DNA of 64,000 nucleotides from Mobula hypostoma (taxonomy: Eukaryota). Made by a program: the position numbers and the translations under genes. The notes beneath the pieces were generated by a model. It saw only the letters and a program-made list of their open reading frames with translations, ran no database searches and was not told the DNA's origin. The stretch spans positions 92,754,001-92,818,000 of the forward strand of contig NC_086108.1 of assembly GCF_963921235.1 (NCBI RefSeq), given 5' to 3'. Positions 8,484 through 63,818 of the stretch are shown here, in pieces (the stretch's first letter is position 1; each line of letters opens with the position of its first letter).

Positions 8484-11400
8484 TTAAATATGCCATCCTA
8501 TCTTTTGTAAATAAGGGTGCCAAATATTCAAAAATGTTACATATTTATCTCTTAAATTATAAGTAATTTTTTCGAGTGGAATAGAACTAGCCATTTCATT
8601 ATTCCAATGATCCATACTTAAATACGAGTCAGATTTCCAAGTGACTGCTATAGTCTTCTTAGCTACTGCCAATGCAATTTTTATAAATTCTTTCTGATAT
8701 TTATTCAATTTAAGTTTTGGCTTAATCCCTTCAATATCACCTAATAGAAATAATACAGGGTTATGTGGAAGTTGAGTTCCAGTAATTTGTTCCAATAAGA
8801 CTTAAATTTATCTAAAAGGGTTGAATTTTAAAACAAGACCAAGTAGAATGTAAAAAAGTACCAATTTCTTGATTACACCGAAAGCATTTATCGGATAGAT
8901 TTGAATTTAATCTATTTATTTTTTGTGGTGTAATATATAATTGGTGTAAAAAATTATATTGTACTAATCTAAGTTGGACATTTATTGTATTTGTCATACT
9001 GTCAAGACAGAGTCTTGACCAATTTGTTTCATCAATAGTAATATTCAGATCTGTTTCCCATTTTTGCTTTGACTTATGGGTTCCTTGTTTAATTGTCTGT
9101 TCTTGAATCAAATTATACATACAAGAAATAAATTTTTTAATTTTCCCTTTTTGAATTAAAATTTCAATTTCATTAGGTTTTGGCAAAAACATTGTTTGAC
9201 CCAGCTTACCTTTTAAGTAAGCCCTTAATTGAAAGTAACAAAAGAGAGTATTATTTGATATTTTATATTTATCCTTTAATTGTTCAAATGACATCAATAT
9301 ACCTCATTCATAACAATCTCCTATAAATTTAATCCCTTTTTGGTACCAATTATATAAAAGTTGATTGTCCATTGTAAAAGGAATAAGGCTGTTTTGGAAC
9401 AAAGGTCTCCTTGCTAATAGAGATTTCTGTGTTTCATTATCAACATTTATCTTATTCCATAGATCAATCAAATGTGTTAATATAGGAGATTCTTTCTTTT
9501 CCCGTATCCATTTAGATTCCCATTTATATATAAAATCTTCATCTATTTTCTCCTATCTTGTCTAATTCTATTTTAATCCATGCTGGTTTTTGATCATCGA
9601 AGAAAGATGCAATAAATCTAAGTTGATTTGCTTTATAATAATTTTAAAAGTTTGGAAGTTGTAACCCTTCTAACCCAAATTTACATGTCAATTTTTCCAA
9701 TGATATTCTTGACATTTTACCTTTCCAAAGAAATTTTCTCACACATTTATTTAACTCTTGAAAAAATTTCTGTGGCAATTGTATTGGTAATGTTTGAAAC
9801 AAGTACTGTAACCTAGGAAATATATTCATTTTTACAACATTGACTCTACCTACTAATGTTATTGGTAGTATCATCCATTTGTCAAAATCTTCTTGAATTT
9901 TTTTCAATAGTGGTAAATAATTAAATTTATATAAATTCTTTACATCATTATCAAGTCTTATACCTAAATACTTTATACCATTTACCGGCCATCTAAATTA
10001 GGTTACTAATTGACATTGACTATAGTCTCCCTTAGTAAGAGGTAAAATTTCACTTTTATCCCAATTTATTTTGTAACCTGATACCTTCCCATATTCATCC
10101 AATCTAGAAGATAATTTATGTTACGAATGTTGTGGGTTTGTTAAGTAGATCAAAATATCATCGGCAAAAAGATTAATTTTATATTCCTCCTGATTAACTC
10201 TAAAACCCATAATATCTGGATCAATTCTGATTAGTTCTGCTAATGGCTCTATCGCCAGTACAAATAAAGCAGGTGATAATGGACAACCTTGCCTAGTTGA
10301 CCTTTTTAATTGGAATGGTGTTGAAATTTGAGAGTTTGTCACTACTTTAGCCTTAGGGTTAGAATTTAAAGTTTTAATCCAATTTATAAAAGATGTTCCT
10401 AACCCATATTTTTCTAATACTTTAAATAAAAAATCCCATTCTAATCTATCAAATGCCTTTTTCTGCATCCAAGGCTACTACTATACTCTTCTCGTCCCTT
10501 TTTTGTGCCAAATGAATTATACTGAGTAGCCGGGTTACATTATCTGCCAATTGTCTATTTTTAATAAATCCTGTTTGATCCATATGTATTAATTTTGGTA
10601 AATATTTAGATAATCTATTCGATAAAATTTTTGCTATTATTTTATAATCCATATTCAATAAAGAAATAGGCCTGTATGATGTTGGTTTCATAGGATCTGT
10701 CTTTTTTTGGCAATACTATTACAACTGTTGAAAAAGATTCTGGGAGTTTATGTATTTTTTCTGCTTGACGTATTAGTTCCATAAAGAGAGGAAATAATAA
10801 ATCTTTAAATTTTTTATAAAATTCAGGTGGAAAACCATCTTCTCCTGGAGATTTATTACTTTGGAGTGATCCTAAAGCTTCTTCAACTTCTTTTAATGTG
10901 AAAGGCATATCTAATCCCTTCTGTTCTTCCAAATTCAATTTTAGAAGAGATACTTGTGATAAAAACCGTTCTATCTCATTAATATCATTTTGAGATTCTG
11001 ATTGATATAATTCAGAATAGAAATTTTTAAAGGTTTCATTTATTTCAAGAGGTTTATAAGATATTTTATTTGCCCTTGTTCTAATTGCATTTATTGTTTT
11101 GGAATCTTGTTCCGTTTTCAACTGCCAGGCAAGAATTTTATGTGCTCTCTCACCTAACTCATAATACCTTTGTTTAGTTCTTATAATTGCTTTTTCCATT
11201 CTATATGTCTGAAGCGTATTATATTGTAACTTCTTATTGACAAGTTGCCTTCGTTTTTCTTCTGACATATATCTTTGAGATTCTTTTTCTAATTTTGTAA
11301 TCTCTTTTTCCAATTGATCTAGTTCTGCCATATATTCTTTCCTAATTTTAGACGTATAACTTATTATCTGGCCCCTAAGATATGCTTTCATCACATCCCA

Positions 11401-12253
11401 TAATATAAATTTATCATCCACTGAATGAAAATTTGTATCCAAAAAAAATTGAATCTGCTTTTTCATAAAATCACAAAAATCTTGACGTTTTAATAATGTT
11501 GAATTAAATCTCCATCTATAAGCCACTTCTTCCTTATCAGCCATTATTATTGTCATTAATAAAGGAGAATGATCTGATAATATTCTTGCTTTATATTCCA
11601 TATTTTCCACTCTGTGTTGAATATGCATTGATAATAGAAAAAAATCTATCCTTGAGTAAGTTTTATGTCTATGAGAATAGAATGAATAGTCTCTTTCTTT
11701 AGGATTGATTCTTCTCCATATATCAATCAAATTTAAATCTTTCATCAATGATAAAGTTAAATTTACTACCTTTGATTTTATAACAGCCTTGGTTGATCTA
11801 TCTAAGACTGGGTCTAAGCAAAAATTAAAGTCTCCTCCAATTAATATTTTTTTCATGTGCATCCGCCAAATTCAAAAAAGCTTCTTGTATGAATTTTGCA
11901 TCATTTTTGTTTGGTGGATAAATATTCATAAAAGTCCATAGTTCAGAAAAAAGTTGACAATGTATAATCAGATATCTCCCAGCAGAATCAGTTATTACAT
12001 TTTGTATTTTAATTGGTAACGTTTTATTGATTAAAATTGCTACTCCCCTCGCTTTTGAATTAAATGAAGCCGCAACAACACTACCCACCCAATCTCTCTT
12101 TAGTTTCTGATGTTCTGTTTCTGTTAGGTGCGTTTCCTGTAAAAAAGCTAAATCTCTCTTCATTTTTTTAATATGTGTTAAGATTCTTTTTCTTTTCACT
12201 GGTCCATTAAGCCCGTTAACATTAAAACTCAAAAAATTCAATAAATTAGTCAT
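8484..12253 (-). pseudogene. L1 ORF2 (APE endonuclease, RT, C-terminal Cys/His motif), broken into several frames
   Basis: Motifs SFNVNG, LQETH, GGDFN, SRIDFF, SDHSP, YRPISLLN, RQGCPLSP, LFADD and CFRC...FLHSTWSC across successive ORF fragments. Confidence 0.95.
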
Positions 12254-12703
12254 TATTCTTAACAAAGTTACTCCAATCTAAAACATTACTTATCTTCTCA
12301 ACTCTCGTAGTTCCTTGGGGAATCTCTTTAAACTTCACCATGTTGCTGTGTGTTTCCCTCCCAACCCTCCAGGCAAAAAGAAAAAAAAGATAGATAAGAT
12401 ACAAAAAAAGAAAAAACAAAATACCCCCCCCACTAATGTTGTGAATGAAAAGATACACAACACTACCCCCCTCCATTGTGCGGGTCGTGGCTAATGCCAC
12501 GCTTGCACACATGATTAGTGTAGCAATTGGTCAGTGCTTCTTCCAGCTCCCCCGCAACAAAAAAAAATTAATGTTACTATTCCCAACTAATATTCCTCCA
12601 ATTTTAACTTTTCTTACCCCCCCTCGTATAATTAATAATATATTTATACATTCATCCGCCTTCAAAAATCCAACAAGTCCATTCTTTGACCCAATCTTCA
12701 TCT

Positions 12704-13802
12704 TCAATCTATCTCGCTCCCCTGGATTTGTTCTTGTACCTGGTGAATATTCAGAGAATCTCGCACAAACTGCTCCGCTTTCTGGTAGTCATCAAAAAAT
12801 CTTTTTTCTCCACCAGGCAAAAAAATCTTCAAGGTTGCAGGATAACGCAATATAAATTGATAACCGTGATCCCATAGGGTTTTTTTCACTGGATTAAATT
12901 TCTTCCTTCTCTTCAAAAGTTCATAACTTATATCAGGGTAGAAAAAAACTTTGTTCCCTTGAATCATCAATGGCCCTTTTCTATCCTTGGCAGCTCGAGC
13001 AGCTGCCTGTAGAATCCTTGTCTTGAAATCTTAAGAATTTTATTAAAATCGATCGTGGATATTGGTCATCTTTTGGTTTTGGTCTTAGAGCTCTATGTGC
13101 CCGCTCAATTTCAATTGGTCGAACCTCCTCTTCCATTTGCAAAACTTCCGGGATCCATCTTTGAAAAAATTCTATTGGTTTTTCTCCCTCCGTACCTTCT
13201 TTAAGACCAACGATTTTAATATTATTACGTCTACTGAAATTTTCCAACATGTCCACTTTCTCCAAGAGTCGATTTCTTTCCAAGTTCCAGACAAGCAGAT
13301 CATTTTCTGTTTTTTCCACTCTATCATTCATTTGCCCCATTGCTCTTTCCATCTTCTGAAGCTTCTTATCCATTTTGTCCTGTCTTTCCATAGCTTTATT
13401 ATAGCACATCTTCGTATCTCTAAGCTCTTCTCTTACTTTTCTTAGTTCAGCCGTTAATTGCAATATAGCCTCTCTTATGTTTCTATCATCTCCTTTACTT
13501 CCAATCGCTTCCAATTCTTCCTCCTCTTCTTCATCTGTGTTCTCTGCAGAATCCAATTCTGACTCTGGGTCATTTTCAATTGCAGTGGCTGTCGGTTCTT
13601 GTAGTTTGAGTTGTGTCGATTTGCGCATGCGCAATTCCGTTGTCTTCTTCGGAGCAACCTCTGCCACCGCCATTGCTCCCTGTTCTACCGAAGGAGATCC
13701 AACCTGAGTCCAAGGCTTCATCGTTGCAGTAGGCCCTTTTTTCTTCCCCTCTCGCGGCTGCTTCGCAACAGCAGACTTCTTTTGTTGCAGTTTAGGAGGC
13801 AT
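12704..13802 (-). pseudogene. L1 ORF1 (coiled coil, RRM, CTD), frameshifted near 13015
   Basis: Motifs LENFSRRNNIKIVGL and IEIERAHR, then VFFYPDIS and LRYPATLKI in another frame. Confidence 0.9.
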
Positions 13803-14036
13803 ATCGTAAAGTAGTCTTACAAAGCTTATAAATAGTTTTCAGAAAGTATTTATTAACTTTGTTTTATTAAACGGTACTTTGCTGATTTTTTTACGGGAGA
13901 GCTGGATTTACACGTCTCAATCCCACGTCATCACGTGACGCCCCCCCCTTACTTTTGTTATTTGAACAGGAATTGCTGTGTAAGTTGGTTTGTCAAATGT
14001 TCCAGTGTTGATTTACTTAATTTTTTTTCTGGCCAG

Positions 14037-19583: not shown

Positions 19584-19937
19584 GCTGGCATGACAGCCCC
19601 AGGTACCAGAAGACACATCTATGACCAAAAGGTGTCAACAGAGAAGTGTGACACCTCCACAATATCATTGCAGATGGGCACCAATAAAGGGGCTTCCCAA
19701 ACGGGTATGACTGTATACGGCCTGGGACGACAAGTGTATGACTCCAAATATTGTGCCACCCCAACTGAGCCTGTCATTCACAATGGAAGCCAGGGAACAA
19801 ATGGCTCGGAGTATAGCGATGGAGATTACCAAGGTGACTATGCAGGTGAATACCCAGATGAGTATCCTGCAGAGTATCAGGATGAGTACCAAGGAGATTA
19901 CCGTGGTGATTACTCTGATCACGGTGTTGATTATTAA
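19584..19937 (+). CDS. CNN3: Calponin-3 last coding exon with acidic C-terminal tail
   Basis: Long pyrimidine tract plus tag acceptor. Encodes [16 protein letters not shown]...[16 protein letters not shown]...DHGVDY, then tandem stops TAA TGA. The acidic tail identifies CNN3 rather than CNN1 or CNN2. Confidence 0.96.
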
Positions 19938-48779: not shown

Positions 48780-50420
48780 AACTGTCATCAATCTGGGAAC
48801 TGGATCCAAACATGGCAAAGGCACATCTAGCCCAGTCTAAATTATAAAATCCTCCTCAGAAGCATCTAGGCACTGGTGCTTAAACTGACTTGATACTGTC
48901 ATCCTCACAGAACTATTGTAGGCCTGAAGAAATTGAAAACCTGCAGAACAGCCAGCTGGAATAACTTTAGGTCAGTGACAAATAGACAAAACAAATGCCT
49001 TAGCTCTTACCAGGAGACAGAAGGAGTGGAGGCTGCTGTTATTTGAATTAACTCTTTCTGGAACGCAGTAATCAAAAGTGGACATAACGAAGGCTCATAG
49101 AGGACCACGGACCATTTTGCAGATTGATTTTGTGGAACCTTTACCCTTAACTCCCAGTGGATTGCAATATACCTTGGTGATAATGGATACTTTTACCAAG
49201 TCGATTAGGACATTCCCGATGAAATTTAAGGTTACAGCCTGAATTTTATTTGAGGAACCCTATTGTGTTATAGAATATCATATGGGATGAAAAAAAAACA
49301 GCAGATGTGCCATCTAAACCCAGGGAATTGAAGATAATGATCAGCAAGATCCCTTTACATCTTGGAGATTTGTAGTGCCACTTGACATTATTGACAGAGT
49401 CAGTCCATCAGTATATCGAACCCAGGTTGCTCCTGACAAGTTGGGTTGGCATCATATTAACCAACTTAAATGCTTTGGAAAAAGTCGATGTCCTTTTGTG
49501 GCTGAGGTTCGCAGAAAACATTGTCAAAGGGATGGTCTGGATTGGGATGATGATATTCTTAGTTCTGTTTTTCAGTTAATTGTTAGTGATGTGGACACAT
49601 GAGTACGTGCCTCCATAGAAAAAGGGGTAGCTACCTGGAGGTTAAAAAGGAAAAGGTTAAAGCAGATTTAGAGACAATGGGAAAGACAGGAAGATGGGAA
49701 CTGTGTTCCTTGCCAGATCTTCTGGGAAGAAAGTGGGAGATTGAAAAGTTACATGTGGGAAATACATCAGTTATCAGATCTTAGTTAAGTGCAGAAACTG
49801 CACTTGGTGTTCATTTCTAGGTATTCAAAAATGATCGGTGTTGTAATACTGTTGTTGACCTGTTAAAGATTCTCCAATATTATTGATTGACTATGACAGT
49901 CTACTACTGGCCAATTGAATATTCACCCGGACAAATGCAAAGAATTAAGTTAGGGTGGTTACAGATGAACTATTCACAACATTCACAAGAGAATCTATTT
50001 GGATCCCATCAGATGTCATGGTAATAAAAGACTGAATGAAGAAGATCAAATGGCTATGTGAATTTCTGAACAAGCTAAACAAAATTTTGCAAGATGTTTG
50101 AGGATAATCATGACCAGCTTACAGTAATATGGGTAAAGGATGGTACTGTTGGGGTAGTGATAGGAAGTCACACTTTTACAGGTCCTGCTTCAGACAGCAA
50201 AGGGCTTCTCACTCAAACACAGCTTCACTGTGAATGGAATGCTGCCGTGAATATGAATCAAAAAGAAGACAATCAATTAGCATGTGATCCAGTTAGCATT
50301 AACGGCATTCCAGTTACTTTGCTGCCTGAGAATTTACCCTTACCCCTAATCCAACAAATGAAACCACAACCGTGACAGTACCAGTTGTTACTAGCCCTTG
50401 TTGTGTGATGAGGTCCGTAA
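48780..50420 (+). pseudogene. Decayed retrovirus-like/LTR-element internal region: integrase core and C-terminal domain, possible env
   Basis: 49102-49260 reads GPRTILQIDFVEPLPLTPSGLQYTLVIMDTFTKSIRTFPMKFKVTA*ILFEE. 49378-49485 reads PLDIIDRVSPSVYRTQVAPDKLGWHHINQLKCFGKS. Confidence 0.75.
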
Positions 50421-51810
50421 AGTTAAAACATGATTACCCAAACTGTTGTGAAATAACCCATTTCCCTCAATGTGCAACATACTTTCCTAAGTGTCTTGCA
50501 ATGGCAACTTAAAATCTTAGATGCTTGTGTGCCAAGTGCCACTGCAATTTTTTCCATAATGATTATATATTATCATGCAAGTTAATCTACCTTTTATTAA
50601 TAAAAATCTTATTATTATTACATATACTGACATAAAATATAAAATTATGTATATTTTATAACTTTATAATTTTCCTTCCATTTTTGTAACCATTTTGATT
50701 TAATGCTGTTTGTTGCAACAGTAATTGCATATTGCTGTGAACAATAAACTTTTCACTGTGTGGATGAATACAATTGCTTTCAACCCTGTTTCATTAATAA
50801 TGACTAAAACGGAACCTTCCAAAATTCACATTGTATTAACTAATCTACACTGTCAGTTAGACAGTAGACTAATCTACATCTGCCATTTCAAATAGAATTT
50901 CTTTCCATGTCATATTAATAATACTTTTTAAATAATTATTATACCAGCATTAGTGAGTGTTCTGAAGTCTGATGCTCCTTTTGGACTTTATTTACCCTAA
51001 CCTATTTCAATTCATGTGATCTCCAAAATTTCTGTGGATTAGATCCCGAAGAAACTGAAAATCTGTGTACGAGCTAGCTAAAACAAGTGAAGCACAGTGG
51101 ACAAGTAGACAAAACAAATGAGTTAGGTCTTGCCAGGTGGTGGAAGAAATGGAAACTAGTGTTTTCCAAATTTACTCTTTCTGAATCAAAGTAATTAAAA
51201 GTGGACGTAACAAGGTCGCTACTGATAATCTGCTAATCATAGATTATTTCTAAATGAGAAGTTGTTTGTGGGATGCTCTTTGATAAGGCAGAAGAATTAT
51301 AAGAAGGGTCGTCGCTCTGTCTGTGTATTGGAGTGGCCTGAGCTATGGAGATATAAAGCAATTAGGAGAGAAAAGATGAAATATTAAGATAAGCTATCTA
51401 ATAAACTAAAAGAGGATTCAAAAAGCTTTTTCAGATATATAAAGAATAAAAGAAAAGAGAGTCGATACCGTTGGAAAATGACACTAGAAGGGCAGTAATT
51501 GGGACAAAGATATGGCTGACGAATTGAATAAGTCCTTTGTGTCAGTCTTCACTGATGAAGACTGAAGACAGTATGCCAGGGGACAGAAGTCAGTGTAATT
51601 GCTGTTACTAAGCAGAAGGTTCTTGGGAAGCTGAAAAGGCTGAAGGTAGCTAAGTCACCAGATGGACTACACTCCAAGATTCTGTAAGAGGTAGCTGAAA
51701 AGATTGTGGAGGCATTTTCCATAAGACCATAAGACAAAGGAGCAGAAGTCAGCCATTTGGCCCATCGAGTCTGCTCCACCATTTTATCATGAGCTGATCC
51801 ATTCTCCCAT

Positions 51811-61107: not shown

Positions 61108-63818
61108 ATAGAAACATAGAAACATAGAAAATAGGTGCAGGAGTAGGCCATTCGGCCCTTCGAGCCTGCACCGCCATTTATTATGATCATGGCTGATCAT
61201 CCAACTCAGAACCCAGCCTTCCCTCCAAACCCCCTGACCCCTGTAGCCACAAGGGCCATATCTAACTTCCTTTTAAACATAGCTAATGAACTGGCCTCAA
61301 CAGTTTGCTGTGGCAGAGAATTCCACAGATTCACCACTCTCTGTGTGAAGAAGTTTTTCCTAACCTCGGTCCTAAAAGGCTTCCCCTCTATCCTCAAACT
61401 GTGACCCCTCGTTCTAGACCTCCCCAACATCGGGAACAATCTTCCCGCATCTAGCCTGTCCAATCCCTTTAGGATCTTATACGTTTCAATCAGATCCCCC
61501 CTCAATCTTCTAAATTCCAACGAGTACAAGCCCAGTTCATCCAGTCTTTCTTCATATGAAAGACCTGCCATCCCAGGAATCAATCTGGTGAACCTTCTTT
61601 GTACTCCCTCTATGGCAAAGATGTCTTTCCTCAGATTAGGGGACCAAAACTGCACACAATACTCCAGGTGTGGTCTCACCAAGGCCTTGTACAACTGCAG
61701 TAGTACCTCCCTGCTCCTGTACTCGAATCCTCTCGCTATAAATGCCAGCATACCGTTCGCCTTTTTCACCGCCTGCTGTACCTGCATGCCCACTTTCAAT
61801 GACTGGTGTATAATGACACCCAGGTCTCGTTGCACCTCCCCTTTTCCTAATCGGCCACCATTCAGATAATAATCTGTTTTCCTATTTTTGCCACCAAAGT
61901 GGATAACTTCACATTTATCCACATTAAATTGCATCTGCCATGAGTTTGCCCACTCACCCAACCTATCCAAGTCACCCTGCATCCTCTTAGCATCCTCCTC
62001 ACTGCTAACACTGCCACCCAGCTTCGTGTCATCCGCAAACTTGGAGATGCTGCATTTAATTCCCTCATCCAAGTCATTAATATATATTGTAAACAACTGG
62101 GGTCCCAGCACTGAGCCTTGCGGTACCCCACTAGTCACCGCCTGCCATTCTGAAAAGGTCCCGTTTATTCCCACTCTTTGCTTCCTGTCTGCTAACCAAT
62201 TCTCCACCCACACCAATACCTTACCCCCAATACCGTGTGCTTTAAGTTTGCACACTAATCTCCTGTGTGGGACCTTGTCAAAAGCCTTTTGAAAATCCAA
62301 ATATACCACATCCACTGGTTCTCCCCTATCCACTCTACTAGTTACATCTTCAAAAAATTCTATGAGATTCGTCAGACATGATTTTCCTTTCACAAATCCA
62401 TGCTGACTTTGTCCGATGATTTCACCGCTTTCCAAATGTGCTGTTATCACATCCTTGATAACTGACTCCAGCAGTTTCCCCACCACCGACGTTAGGCTAA
62501 CCGGCCTATAATTCCCCGGTTTCTCTCTCCCTCCTTTTTTAAAAAGTGGGGTTACATTAGCCACCCTCCAATCCTCAGGAACTAGTCCAGAATCTAACGA
62601 GTTTTGAAAAATTATCACTAATGCATCCACTATTTCTTGGGCCACTTCCTTAAGCACTCTGGGATGCAGACCATCTGGCCCTGGGGATTTATCTGCCTTC
62701 AATCCCTTCAATTTACCTAACACCACTTCCCTACTAACATGTATTTCGCTCAGTTCCTCCATCTCACTGGACCCTCTGTCCCTTACTATTTCTGGAAGAT
62801 TATTTATGTCCTCCTTAGTGAAGACAGAACCAAAGTAATTATTCAATTGGTCTGCCATGTCCTTGCTCCCCATAATCAATTCACCTGTTTCTGTTTGCAG
62901 GGGACCTACATTTGTCTTTATCAGTCTTTTCCTTTTTACATATCTATAAAAGCTTTTACAATCCGTTTTTATGTTCCCTGCCAGTTTTCTCTCATAATCT
63001 TTTTTCCCCTTCCTAATTAAGCCCTTTGTCCTCCTCTGCTGAACTCTGAATTTCTCCCAGTCCTCAGGTGAGCCACTTTCTCTGGCTAATTTGTATGCTA
63101 CTTCTTTGGAATTGATACTATCCCTAATTTCTCTTGTCAGCCATGGGTGCACTACCTTCCTTGATTTATTCTTTTGCCAAACTGGGATGAACAATTGTTG
63201 TAGTTCATCCATGCAACCTTTAAATGCCTGCCATTGCATATCCACCGTCAATCCTTGAAGTGTCATTTGCCAGTCTATCTTAGCTAATTCACGTCTCATA
63301 CCTTCAAAGTTACCCCTCTTTAAGTTCAGAACCTTTGTTTCTGAATTAACTACGTCACTCTCCATGTTAATGAAGAATTCCACCATATTATGGTCACTCT
63401 TACCCAAGGGGCCTCTCACGACAAGATCGCTAATTAACCCTTCCTCATTGCTCAAAACCCAGTCAAGAATAGCCTGCTCTCTAGTCGGTTCCTCGACATG
63501 TTGGTTCAAAAAACCATCCCGCATACATTCCAAGAAATCCTCTTCCTCAGCACCTTTACCAATTTGGTTCACCCAGTCTACATGTAGATTGAAGTCACCC
63601 ATTATAACTGCTGTTCCTTTATTGCACACATTTCTAATTTCCTGTTTAATACCATCTCCGACCTCACACTACTGTTAGGTGGCCTGTACACAACTCCCAC
63701 CAGCGTCTTCTGCCCCTTAGTGTTACGCAGCTCTACCCATATCGATTCCACATCTTCCCGGCTTATGTCCTTCCTTTCTATTGCGTTAATCTCTTTTTTA
63801 ACCAGCAACGCCACCCCA
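61108..63818 (-). mobile_element. Young 5'-truncated CR1 with an 807-codon uninterrupted ORF2 segment (61206-63629)
   Basis: MGDFN, SDHNMV, NYRPVSLTS, GVPQGSVLGP and KFADDTK motifs. Truncated within the endonuclease domain, with a frameshift near 63665. Confidence 0.95.

Follow-up and report, generated by a model that had tools for sequence, protein, structure and literature searches.

A dead, internally deleted provirus in the Mobula hypostoma genome and the open env of a sibling, likely a captured gene with a predicted paramyxovirus F fold

Provirus remnants in the window

The window (the whole 64,000-nucleotide stretch of Mobula hypostoma contig NC_086108.1 analyzed here, positions 92,754,001 to 92,818,000 of assembly GCF_963921235.1) contains on its plus strand an element of ~2.4 kb (48917-51293), made up of a 5' LTR remnant, integrase scraps, env scraps, and a 3' LTR. 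Elsewhere in the window, calponin-type repeats with an acidic tail (19584-19937, plus strand) are what we take to be, in all likelihood, the last exon of a calponin-3-like host gene. On the minus strand lie a broken LINE, presumably of the L1 type (8484-13838), and an 820-codon reverse transcriptase (RT) frame that we assign to the CR1 type (61206-63668), with many further fragments in the window that we likewise regard as CR1.

The original prediction described a plus-strand reading with the first catalytic Asp of a DDE integrase, and this holds: both integrase peptides are present on the plus strand in a single frame, with the Asp codon at 49126. The N-terminal part of the integrase core (49102-49263) has a stop at 49240 and, over 54 columns, is 50% identical to the integrase of a sibling. 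Its match to Pfam rve (E = 0.0058) falls short of the curated cutoff, and on a profile of reference integrases it scores 38.3 bits, compared with at most 2.8 bits for 300 codon shuffles. Linker scraps and a decayed GPY/F-type C-terminal domain follow at 49283-49602, with a family-specific extension up to the stop; positions 49342-49488 share 47% identity with the sibling integrase tail, and the linker near 49283-49340, which was matched by eye, lies in another frame. The two pieces correspond to columns 72-117 and 303-345 of a 345-column integrase alignment. The ~185 alignment columns that are absent would carry the second Asp and the Glu, and most of the catalytic core is thus lost. The deletion and the C-terminal domain that had been proposed to follow it are both present, but the GPY/F motif itself has decayed, with PL where relatives show GP(Y/F). 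Likewise, most of the span originally assigned to integrase (49072-49485) is integrase, but LTR comparisons identify 49072-49093 as LTR, and the element is larger than that span, with env remnants and both LTRs.

The 5' LTR remnant (48917-49093, plus strand) is truncated on its 3' side by a deletion, and its 5' edge is placed at the TG at 48917. Positions 48923-49093 match 51045-51215 with 73.8% identity (E = 5e-25), and LTR-like copies elsewhere begin at position 16 to 24 and stop near position 195 of a query consisting of window positions 48900-49300. The deletion 3' of this LTR took gag, protease, RT, RNase H, and the integrase zinc finger. The 3' LTR remnant (51045-51293, plus strand, edges approximate) matches the 5' LTR of the window as well as both LTRs of a sibling provirus (L021/L022).

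Between the integrase and the 3' LTR, an env splice acceptor and a remnant of the signal peptide and surface subunit (SU) occupy 49810-50418 on the plus strand. This stretch matches codons 2-220 of the open env of that sibling by tblastn and is interrupted by stops and frameshifts; the acceptor AG, which ends at 49820, is assigned by homology to the acceptor used in the sibling env. The end of the env transmembrane region (50472-50545, plus strand) corresponds to codons 709-724 (E = 0.05), and nucleotides 50475-50659 match L022:5416-5606. A deletion of ~490 codons (codons ~221-708) leaves the window env without furin site, fusion peptide, or heptads.

With two LTR remnants 26% apart, three large deletions, and not one whole gene, the window element is a dead, internally deleted provirus. 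Its LTR-integrase junction was bridged by none of the 39 other genome matches (best 40 of 41 candidates scored), and the deletions therefore likely arose in place; the copy would have undergone neutral decay after integration. A non-autonomous deleted subfamily was also considered and is ruled out by the same count and by the look-alike deletion in L035, which ends differently.

A multicopy family and its placement among retroviruses

A search of the genome for related copies, as the original prediction had proposed, recovered a multicopy family whose provirus gene order could be rebuilt from siblings: gag (with a zinc knuckle), protease, RT, tether, RNase H, integrase, and env. The flagged stretch has at least 47 DNA matches in the genome, itself included (best 40 of 397 candidates scored), at 65 to 83% identity, and an env probe has at least 137 (best 131 of 631 candidates scored). 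The siblings form two subfamilies, A, which includes the window copy, and B, which is better preserved and has a charged, possibly coiled-coil frame 5' of capsid; an smc-like accessory gene is known from some lokiretroviruses. Long gag, pol, and env pieces are found in the subfamily B copies L072-L085, every examined copy being broken by stops or frameshifts. Many near-identical, decayed family A copies with shared flanks (L010-L013, L015, and L017-L020) sit on small contigs (C111, C112, C122, C135, C148, C163, and C168) and were probably amplified within a larger repeated block.

The nearest database Pols, with 45 to 56% RT identity, come from coelacanth, frogs, and turtles, where they bear the name "protein NYNRIN-like," and bird relatives were recovered with the integrase query. 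These nearest Pols carry PF17917/PF17919 and PF00075. A dual RNase H (tether plus RNase H), judged from sibling frame order and the nearest Pols, is present in the family; it is common to all retroviruses and not diagnostic. No lineage can be read from the labels "protein NYNRIN-like" or "Gypsy retrotransposon integrase-like protein 1," since among the proteins P0040-P0187 both are given to lokiretrovirus, Ovex1-like, and other basal retroviral Pols alike.

Relatives of the Env were found in Heterodontus, Scyliorhinus, Mustelus, Chiloscyllium, Pristis, Rhinoraja, Pristiophorus, Heptranchias, and one frog (14 of 36 matches looked up). Long Env-like proteins of the same type, P0010 (GCC29952.1, Chiloscyllium punctatum, 739 aa), P0008 (Mustelus asterias, 673 aa), and P0014 (Pelodytes ibericus, 723 aa), may represent young proviruses or separate captures. 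Pieces of family env or RT also occur in the host gene models P0013 (Pristis TRP pyrexia-like), P0029 (Heterodontus fbxo15 isoform X3), and P0130 (Mustelus transporter-like), as exonized fragments or annotation artifacts.

The window copy is without RT, and its lineage is read through sibling copies: in the integrase tree, its integrase clusters with family A (SH-aLRT 99) and with A and B together (100). In a careful 31-row RT tree, the A+B RTs (100/98) fall inside the retrovirus clade (100/98), with lokiretrovirus outside, and a quick 77-row tree had the same shape. The family's neighbors are an unnamed Pol and coelacanth and frog Pols (85/83). Around it, a basal polytomy holds the family, an Ovex1-like clade of birds and turtles, and SnRV with class I; SnRV joined class I (96/96), not the family; a class III/clade Huo ERV would be expected to group with SnRV, ERV-L, and ERV-S. 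The integrase tree likewise separates the family from lokiretrovirus integrase; it has no mammalian NYNRIN row, as the searches turned up no NYNRIN protein. These trees hold one lokiretrovirus and no spumavirus, ERV-L, ERV-S, class II, CmiERV, or SpeV row. The SnRV Pol (P0057), the lokiretrovirus Pol (P0175), and the lokiretrovirus Env (P0034) were matched to sequences or motifs in the available supplement of PMC7947760, and the Ovex1 label of the bird rows is given by their WMGPVRV tail, as reported for Ovex1 (PMC2717909, in the part available). Of the ~200 Pol-like proteins fetched, 60 served as references in the 77-row RT tree, which left out L022- (a neighboring element), L035, L085, and L088 and took P0063-type reference rows only where labelled. 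The integrase tree left out L033+ (another element), L017, L022, L035, L087, L091, and six family B rows.

The family RT thus lies inside the retroviruses and outside both class I and Gypsy. The first of these exclusions agrees with the original view that the integrase tail is not that of a gamma- or epsilon-type ERV, and both bear on the outcome that had been named as refuting it, namely, a consensus that falls inside an ordinary env-less Gypsy clade or a well-known ERV class. UniRef calls several of the relatives "Gypsy retrotransposon integrase-like protein 1," but the window has env remnants, in the 77-row RT tree the family falls outside the clades of the gypsy rows (100) and of the class I rows (99), and the sibling env has no CX6CC. 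We consider a Gypsy or class I identity extremely improbable.

The original prediction also pointed to a deep-branching, lokiretrovirus-type lineage. A similarity of the integrase tail to the lokiretrovirus tail, and to the tails of NCBI "protein NYNRIN-like" Pols, is borne out by the integrase alignment and the relatives. Also in favor of a lokiretrovirus lineage of cartilaginous fish is the homology of the Env with that of a lokiretrovirus (P0034), which was recovered at E = 1.3e-5 from 1.8 billion proteins and aligns at 25% over 319 columns; P0034 is the only row of 55 to match Pfam Fusion_gly. A further point in favor is that six chondrichthyan genomes stand without the asterisk of a known Loki host in Table S2 of PMC7947760. 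Against it, forcing A+B to group with lokiretrovirus in the RT tree lowered the likelihood by 32 (p-AU 0.006), the integrase tree separates the two, and the PQG and QYVDDLL motifs of the family RTs set them apart from the Loki RTs in the available supplement of PMC7947760. In addition, F-like Envs occur also in foamy and walleye retroviruses and are therefore not diagnostic of lokiretroviruses. In a strict first-pass search with Loki Pol, which sets a floor, the best genome matches reached only 35 to 39% identity, and a true lokiretrovirus was not found in this genome among the matches listed. Wang and Han found no lokiretroviruses in cartilaginous fish, as far as the available parts of PMC7947760 report. 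The placement of the family with lokiretroviruses is thus contradicted by the trees, and we regard it as very unlikely. Because the RT and integrase trees agree on a non-Loki placement, the lokiretrovirus-like tail is likely an ancestral trait. A swap of the integrase domain was considered as well and is ruled out by the same agreement.

From the literature placement of its neighbors, the family is likely a class III/clade Huo-grade ERV near Ovex1; it was not supported as sister to the Ovex1-like rows. As far as the available text of these sources goes, CmiERV lineage I clusters with SnRV and SnRV-related ERVs occur in cartilaginous fish (PMC4422223), clade Huo infects all major vertebrate lineages (PMC6001957), and chondrichthyan ERV RTs are mostly of clade III, with 2843 clade III RT loci in 6 genomes (PMC11089739). 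The suggestion that the lineage would be new to sharks and rays accordingly fails, and the window fossil is a further family of a grade already known from cartilaginous fish and ordinary by itself. The relation to CmiERV comes from literature placement, not sequence. A placement of NYNRIN was not found in the available text of PMC9447858, and the window family is not mentioned in the available text of PMC8278194, PMC13709493, or 10.1101/2023.10.26.564294.

The open env of a sibling provirus

The sibling provirus at G000:C2, outside the window, has an open env of 741 codons (G000:C2:126459289-126461511, L022:3289-5511). Its product has a hydrophobic N terminus, RRRR at residues 279-282 (numbered from the first Met), a stretch resembling a fusion peptide, a transmembrane segment, and eight sequons, and it has no CX6CC. 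The rest of the C2 provirus is ruined: its LTRs share 79% identity over 333 bases (21% apart), no RT match was found between the protease and tether remnants, and the remaining pol (RNase H and integrase) has 12 stops in 468 codons. At that rate 18.8 stops would be expected in env, compared with 0 observed in 732 codons (P = 7e-9). In terms of private single-base codon changes, the C2 env has 52 synonymous and 40 non-synonymous changes (w 0.22), compared with 204 synonymous changes, 649 non-synonymous changes, and 46 stops in 11 sibling envs (w 0.91; Fisher p = 3e-10), where w is derived from change counts and not from a codon model. None of 2000 neutral simulations kept the frame open at the LTR-derived age. 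The C2 env is under purifying selection.

Half the LTR divergence (0.12) is, by hand calculation, ~2.7 times half the divergence to organism D, and the insertion therefore likely long predates the split from that organism. The rate taken from the available part of PMC4422223, applied to the LTR divergence, would give ages exceeding that of the group itself.

The C2 protein shares 93% identity with XP_059838750 (Hypanus sabinus) and XP_072911529 (Hemitrygon akajei), both of which are open. Both stingray models begin with the same nine-residue exon 1 peptide, which is encoded here at L021:1848 before a GT donor. This exon is not part of the provirus but precedes the C2 5' LTR by 1.6 kb and the env acceptor by 9.4 kb, and the probable captured env gene, from exon 1 to the env end, spans G000:C2:126449848-126461511 (L021:1848 to L022:5511). 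A contig in run X2 (organism B, a related species) starts at the env acceptor, and its loose end matches exon 1 at 29 of the 30 letters shown; support for splicing consists of this one contig, from a run whose RNA status was guessed by the tool, and the two RefSeq models. The X2 contigs cover env into the 3' LTR at a depth of 25 to 30, compared with 0 to 4 for the pol remnants, contig depth being a weak measure. Run X1, with contigs almost identical to this genome, did not show the exon 1-env junction, and no RNA holder of the env is on record, which is no evidence for or against expression. In Hypanus sabinus, P0003 (XP_059837273, 319 aa) is a further, truncated near-copy of the env model; it lies on a contig equal in length to that of the full model, which suggests a local duplication of the env gene.

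Divergence between species also differs between env and pol. In run X8, with pieces sorted by depth, env differs at 27 of 837 letters (3.2%) with no gaps, and the pol remnants differ at 160 of 1892 (8.5%) with 52 gap letters (p = 2e-7). In run X4, with orthologous and paralogous pieces sorted in a circular manner by their own divergence, the counts are 21 of 864 (2.4%) and 109 of 2167 (5.0%; p = 0.001). The difference in run X2 was not significant (19/306 versus 51/581, p = 0.19). Piece counts in these cross-species comparisons are among the matches listed (32 listed, 2021 more). Within the protein, the C-terminal (fusion) subunit is conserved more than SU (95% versus 88 to 90%). The basis for treating the C2 provirus as the same locus in other species consists of the shared upstream exon and pol remnants that are 91 to 97% identical in the runs of those species, flanking host genes being no part of it.

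Exon 1 lies inside an interspersed repeat of ~600 bases with at least 48 matches (best 40 of 723 candidates scored). Among five copies examined, AATAAA is kept in four and the donor in two, and pol was not found within 1.5 kb of any of them. The repeat has no match to any fetched family A or B locus; its TATA and AATAAA motifs suggest a solo LTR. We propose that this LTR-like repeat upstream of the C2 provirus supplied the TATA box, the start codon, and the splice donor, that the transcript would reuse the viral env acceptor and end in the 3' LTR, and that the host may then have retained the env.

An open frame could also have come about without capture, as a chance survivor or as a product of a younger virus lineage selected before integration. 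The private-change counts do not by themselves separate a viral from a host phase, and 137 env matches were scored, which gave many chances for one survivor. However, the LTRs of this provirus are 21% apart and its pol is ruined, the constraint seen between species in X8 and X4 persists after integration, the frame is open in two named stingrays, and a P of ~1e-8 holds after correction for 137 tries. We therefore judge non-capture to be improbable and retain the capture of the C2 env as the likely reading.

Predicted fold, putative role, and comparison with known systems

Pfam did not recognize the C2 env itself, and searches of PDB sequences with the integrase piece, the env, and an env profile gave no significant match. 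A single-sequence fold was unusable (pLDDT 37); an ectodomain model with a 55-row alignment reached a pLDDT of 68, with the fusion-peptide region below 50. The best Foldseek matches of this model in the PDB were post-fusion RSV F (E = 3e-11, TM up to 0.50) and the F proteins of hPIV3, henipavirus, and metapneumovirus, together with foamy Env (E = 1e-6); matches among viral models were lispivirus glycoproteins, baculovirus F, and walleye retrovirus Env. The top VIA match was NDV F, with a Z of 10.2 (one unit more than for generic coiled coils), an rmsd of 11.0, and 329 positions aligned. Loki-type Envs are related to the F proteins of Mononegavirales, and their signal peptide, basic cleavage site, fusion peptide, coiled coil, and anchor all have counterparts in the C2 env; the window keeps only SU and tail scraps. 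The C2 Env is thus predicted to have a paramyxovirus F fold; a shared fold shows no function.

Overall, we hold with good confidence that the window contains a dead provirus of a family likely of class III/clade Huo grade, not a lokiretrovirus, and that the env of its C2 sibling is open, spliced, and selected and is likely a captured host gene with a predicted F fold.

The C2 product would be a membrane-anchored, furin-cleaved, trimeric class I fusion protein. As judged from its sequence features, the leading candidate for its role, held at somewhat less than even confidence, is a cell-surface class I fusogen, and this is favored over an entry blocker because every fusion part is retained. The captured env may instead have been kept as an antiviral factor that blocks the entry of related viruses, by receptor interference or as a dominant-negative trimer, without fusing host cells. 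Captured envs with an antiviral role include Fv4 and enJSRV. Such a role would fit the faster divergence of SU than of the fusion subunit and the wide occurrence of the family and its relatives among sharks and rays. Against it, three species retain the polybasic cleavage site together with the fusion peptide, the heptads, the anchor, and the tail, and no target is evident, since the viruses of this family appear to have been dead for a long time in this genome. We rate this putative antiviral role as a lesser possibility than the fusogen, and some other role as slightly less probable again.

Stingray uterine villi feed embryos. It is possible, although less likely than not, that stingrays domesticated a retroviral env of the paramyxovirus F type, unrelated to gamma-type syncytins and with a promoter exon from a second mobile element, as a putative cell-fusion protein of their own, e.g., in the uterine villi.

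Several known systems resemble parts of this one. Ovex1 of birds and SpeV of tuatara resemble the family in a degenerate GPY/F tail and the C2 env in a spliced third ORF without CKS17 or CX6CC that is kept open by the host (PMC2717909, in the part available). Ovex1, however, keeps gag, pol, and ORF3 at a single-copy locus, whereas here the family is multicopy and dead, env only is kept, and exon 1 lies outside the provirus. ERVs of the same grade (CmiERV lineage I, clade Huo, and class III) are reported in chondrichthyans, and neither an F-type Env nor a captured env is described for chondrichthyan class III ERVs in the available text of PMC4422223, PMC6001957, and PMC11089739. Lokiretroviruses, as described in the available part of PMC7947760, share with the family a homologous F-like Env, a tether plus RNase H, and a similar integrase tail but differ in that the family RT and integrase lie outside the Loki branch, which in RT is sister to all other retroviruses, and the RT motifs are not the same.

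Syncytins, percomORF, and chondrichthyan syncytin-like Envs are, like the C2 env, open envs in decayed proviruses that are transcribed and common to several species. A 2026 preprint reports 295 syncytin-like Envs in 16 chondrichthyans, obtained with syncytin queries and with an immunosuppressive domain and a CC motif required; the C2 locus identifier is absent from its main text, and the supplements could bear on this point (bioRxiv 10.64898/2026.05.06.723177). The C2 Env differs from such proteins in having no CX6CC, a predicted F-type fold, and a fusion subunit of 450 residues. In the literature searched, we found no report of the C2 env gene or of an F-type env capture in rays.

The retroviral branch to which this family belongs bears an Env that is homologous to lokiretrovirus Env and has a predicted pneumovirus/paramyxovirus F-like fold. 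Together with the foamy and walleye matches, this supports the view that retroviral envelopes were ancestrally F-type fusogens and that the gamma-type Env came later. In live-bearing rays, one copy of the family is apparently a captured env. A screen that starts from syncytins would likely not pick up the C2 env, and F-type captures may therefore go unnoticed in sharks, rays, and amphibians. The C2 env provides a concrete gene with which to address the question of cell fusion or antiviral function.
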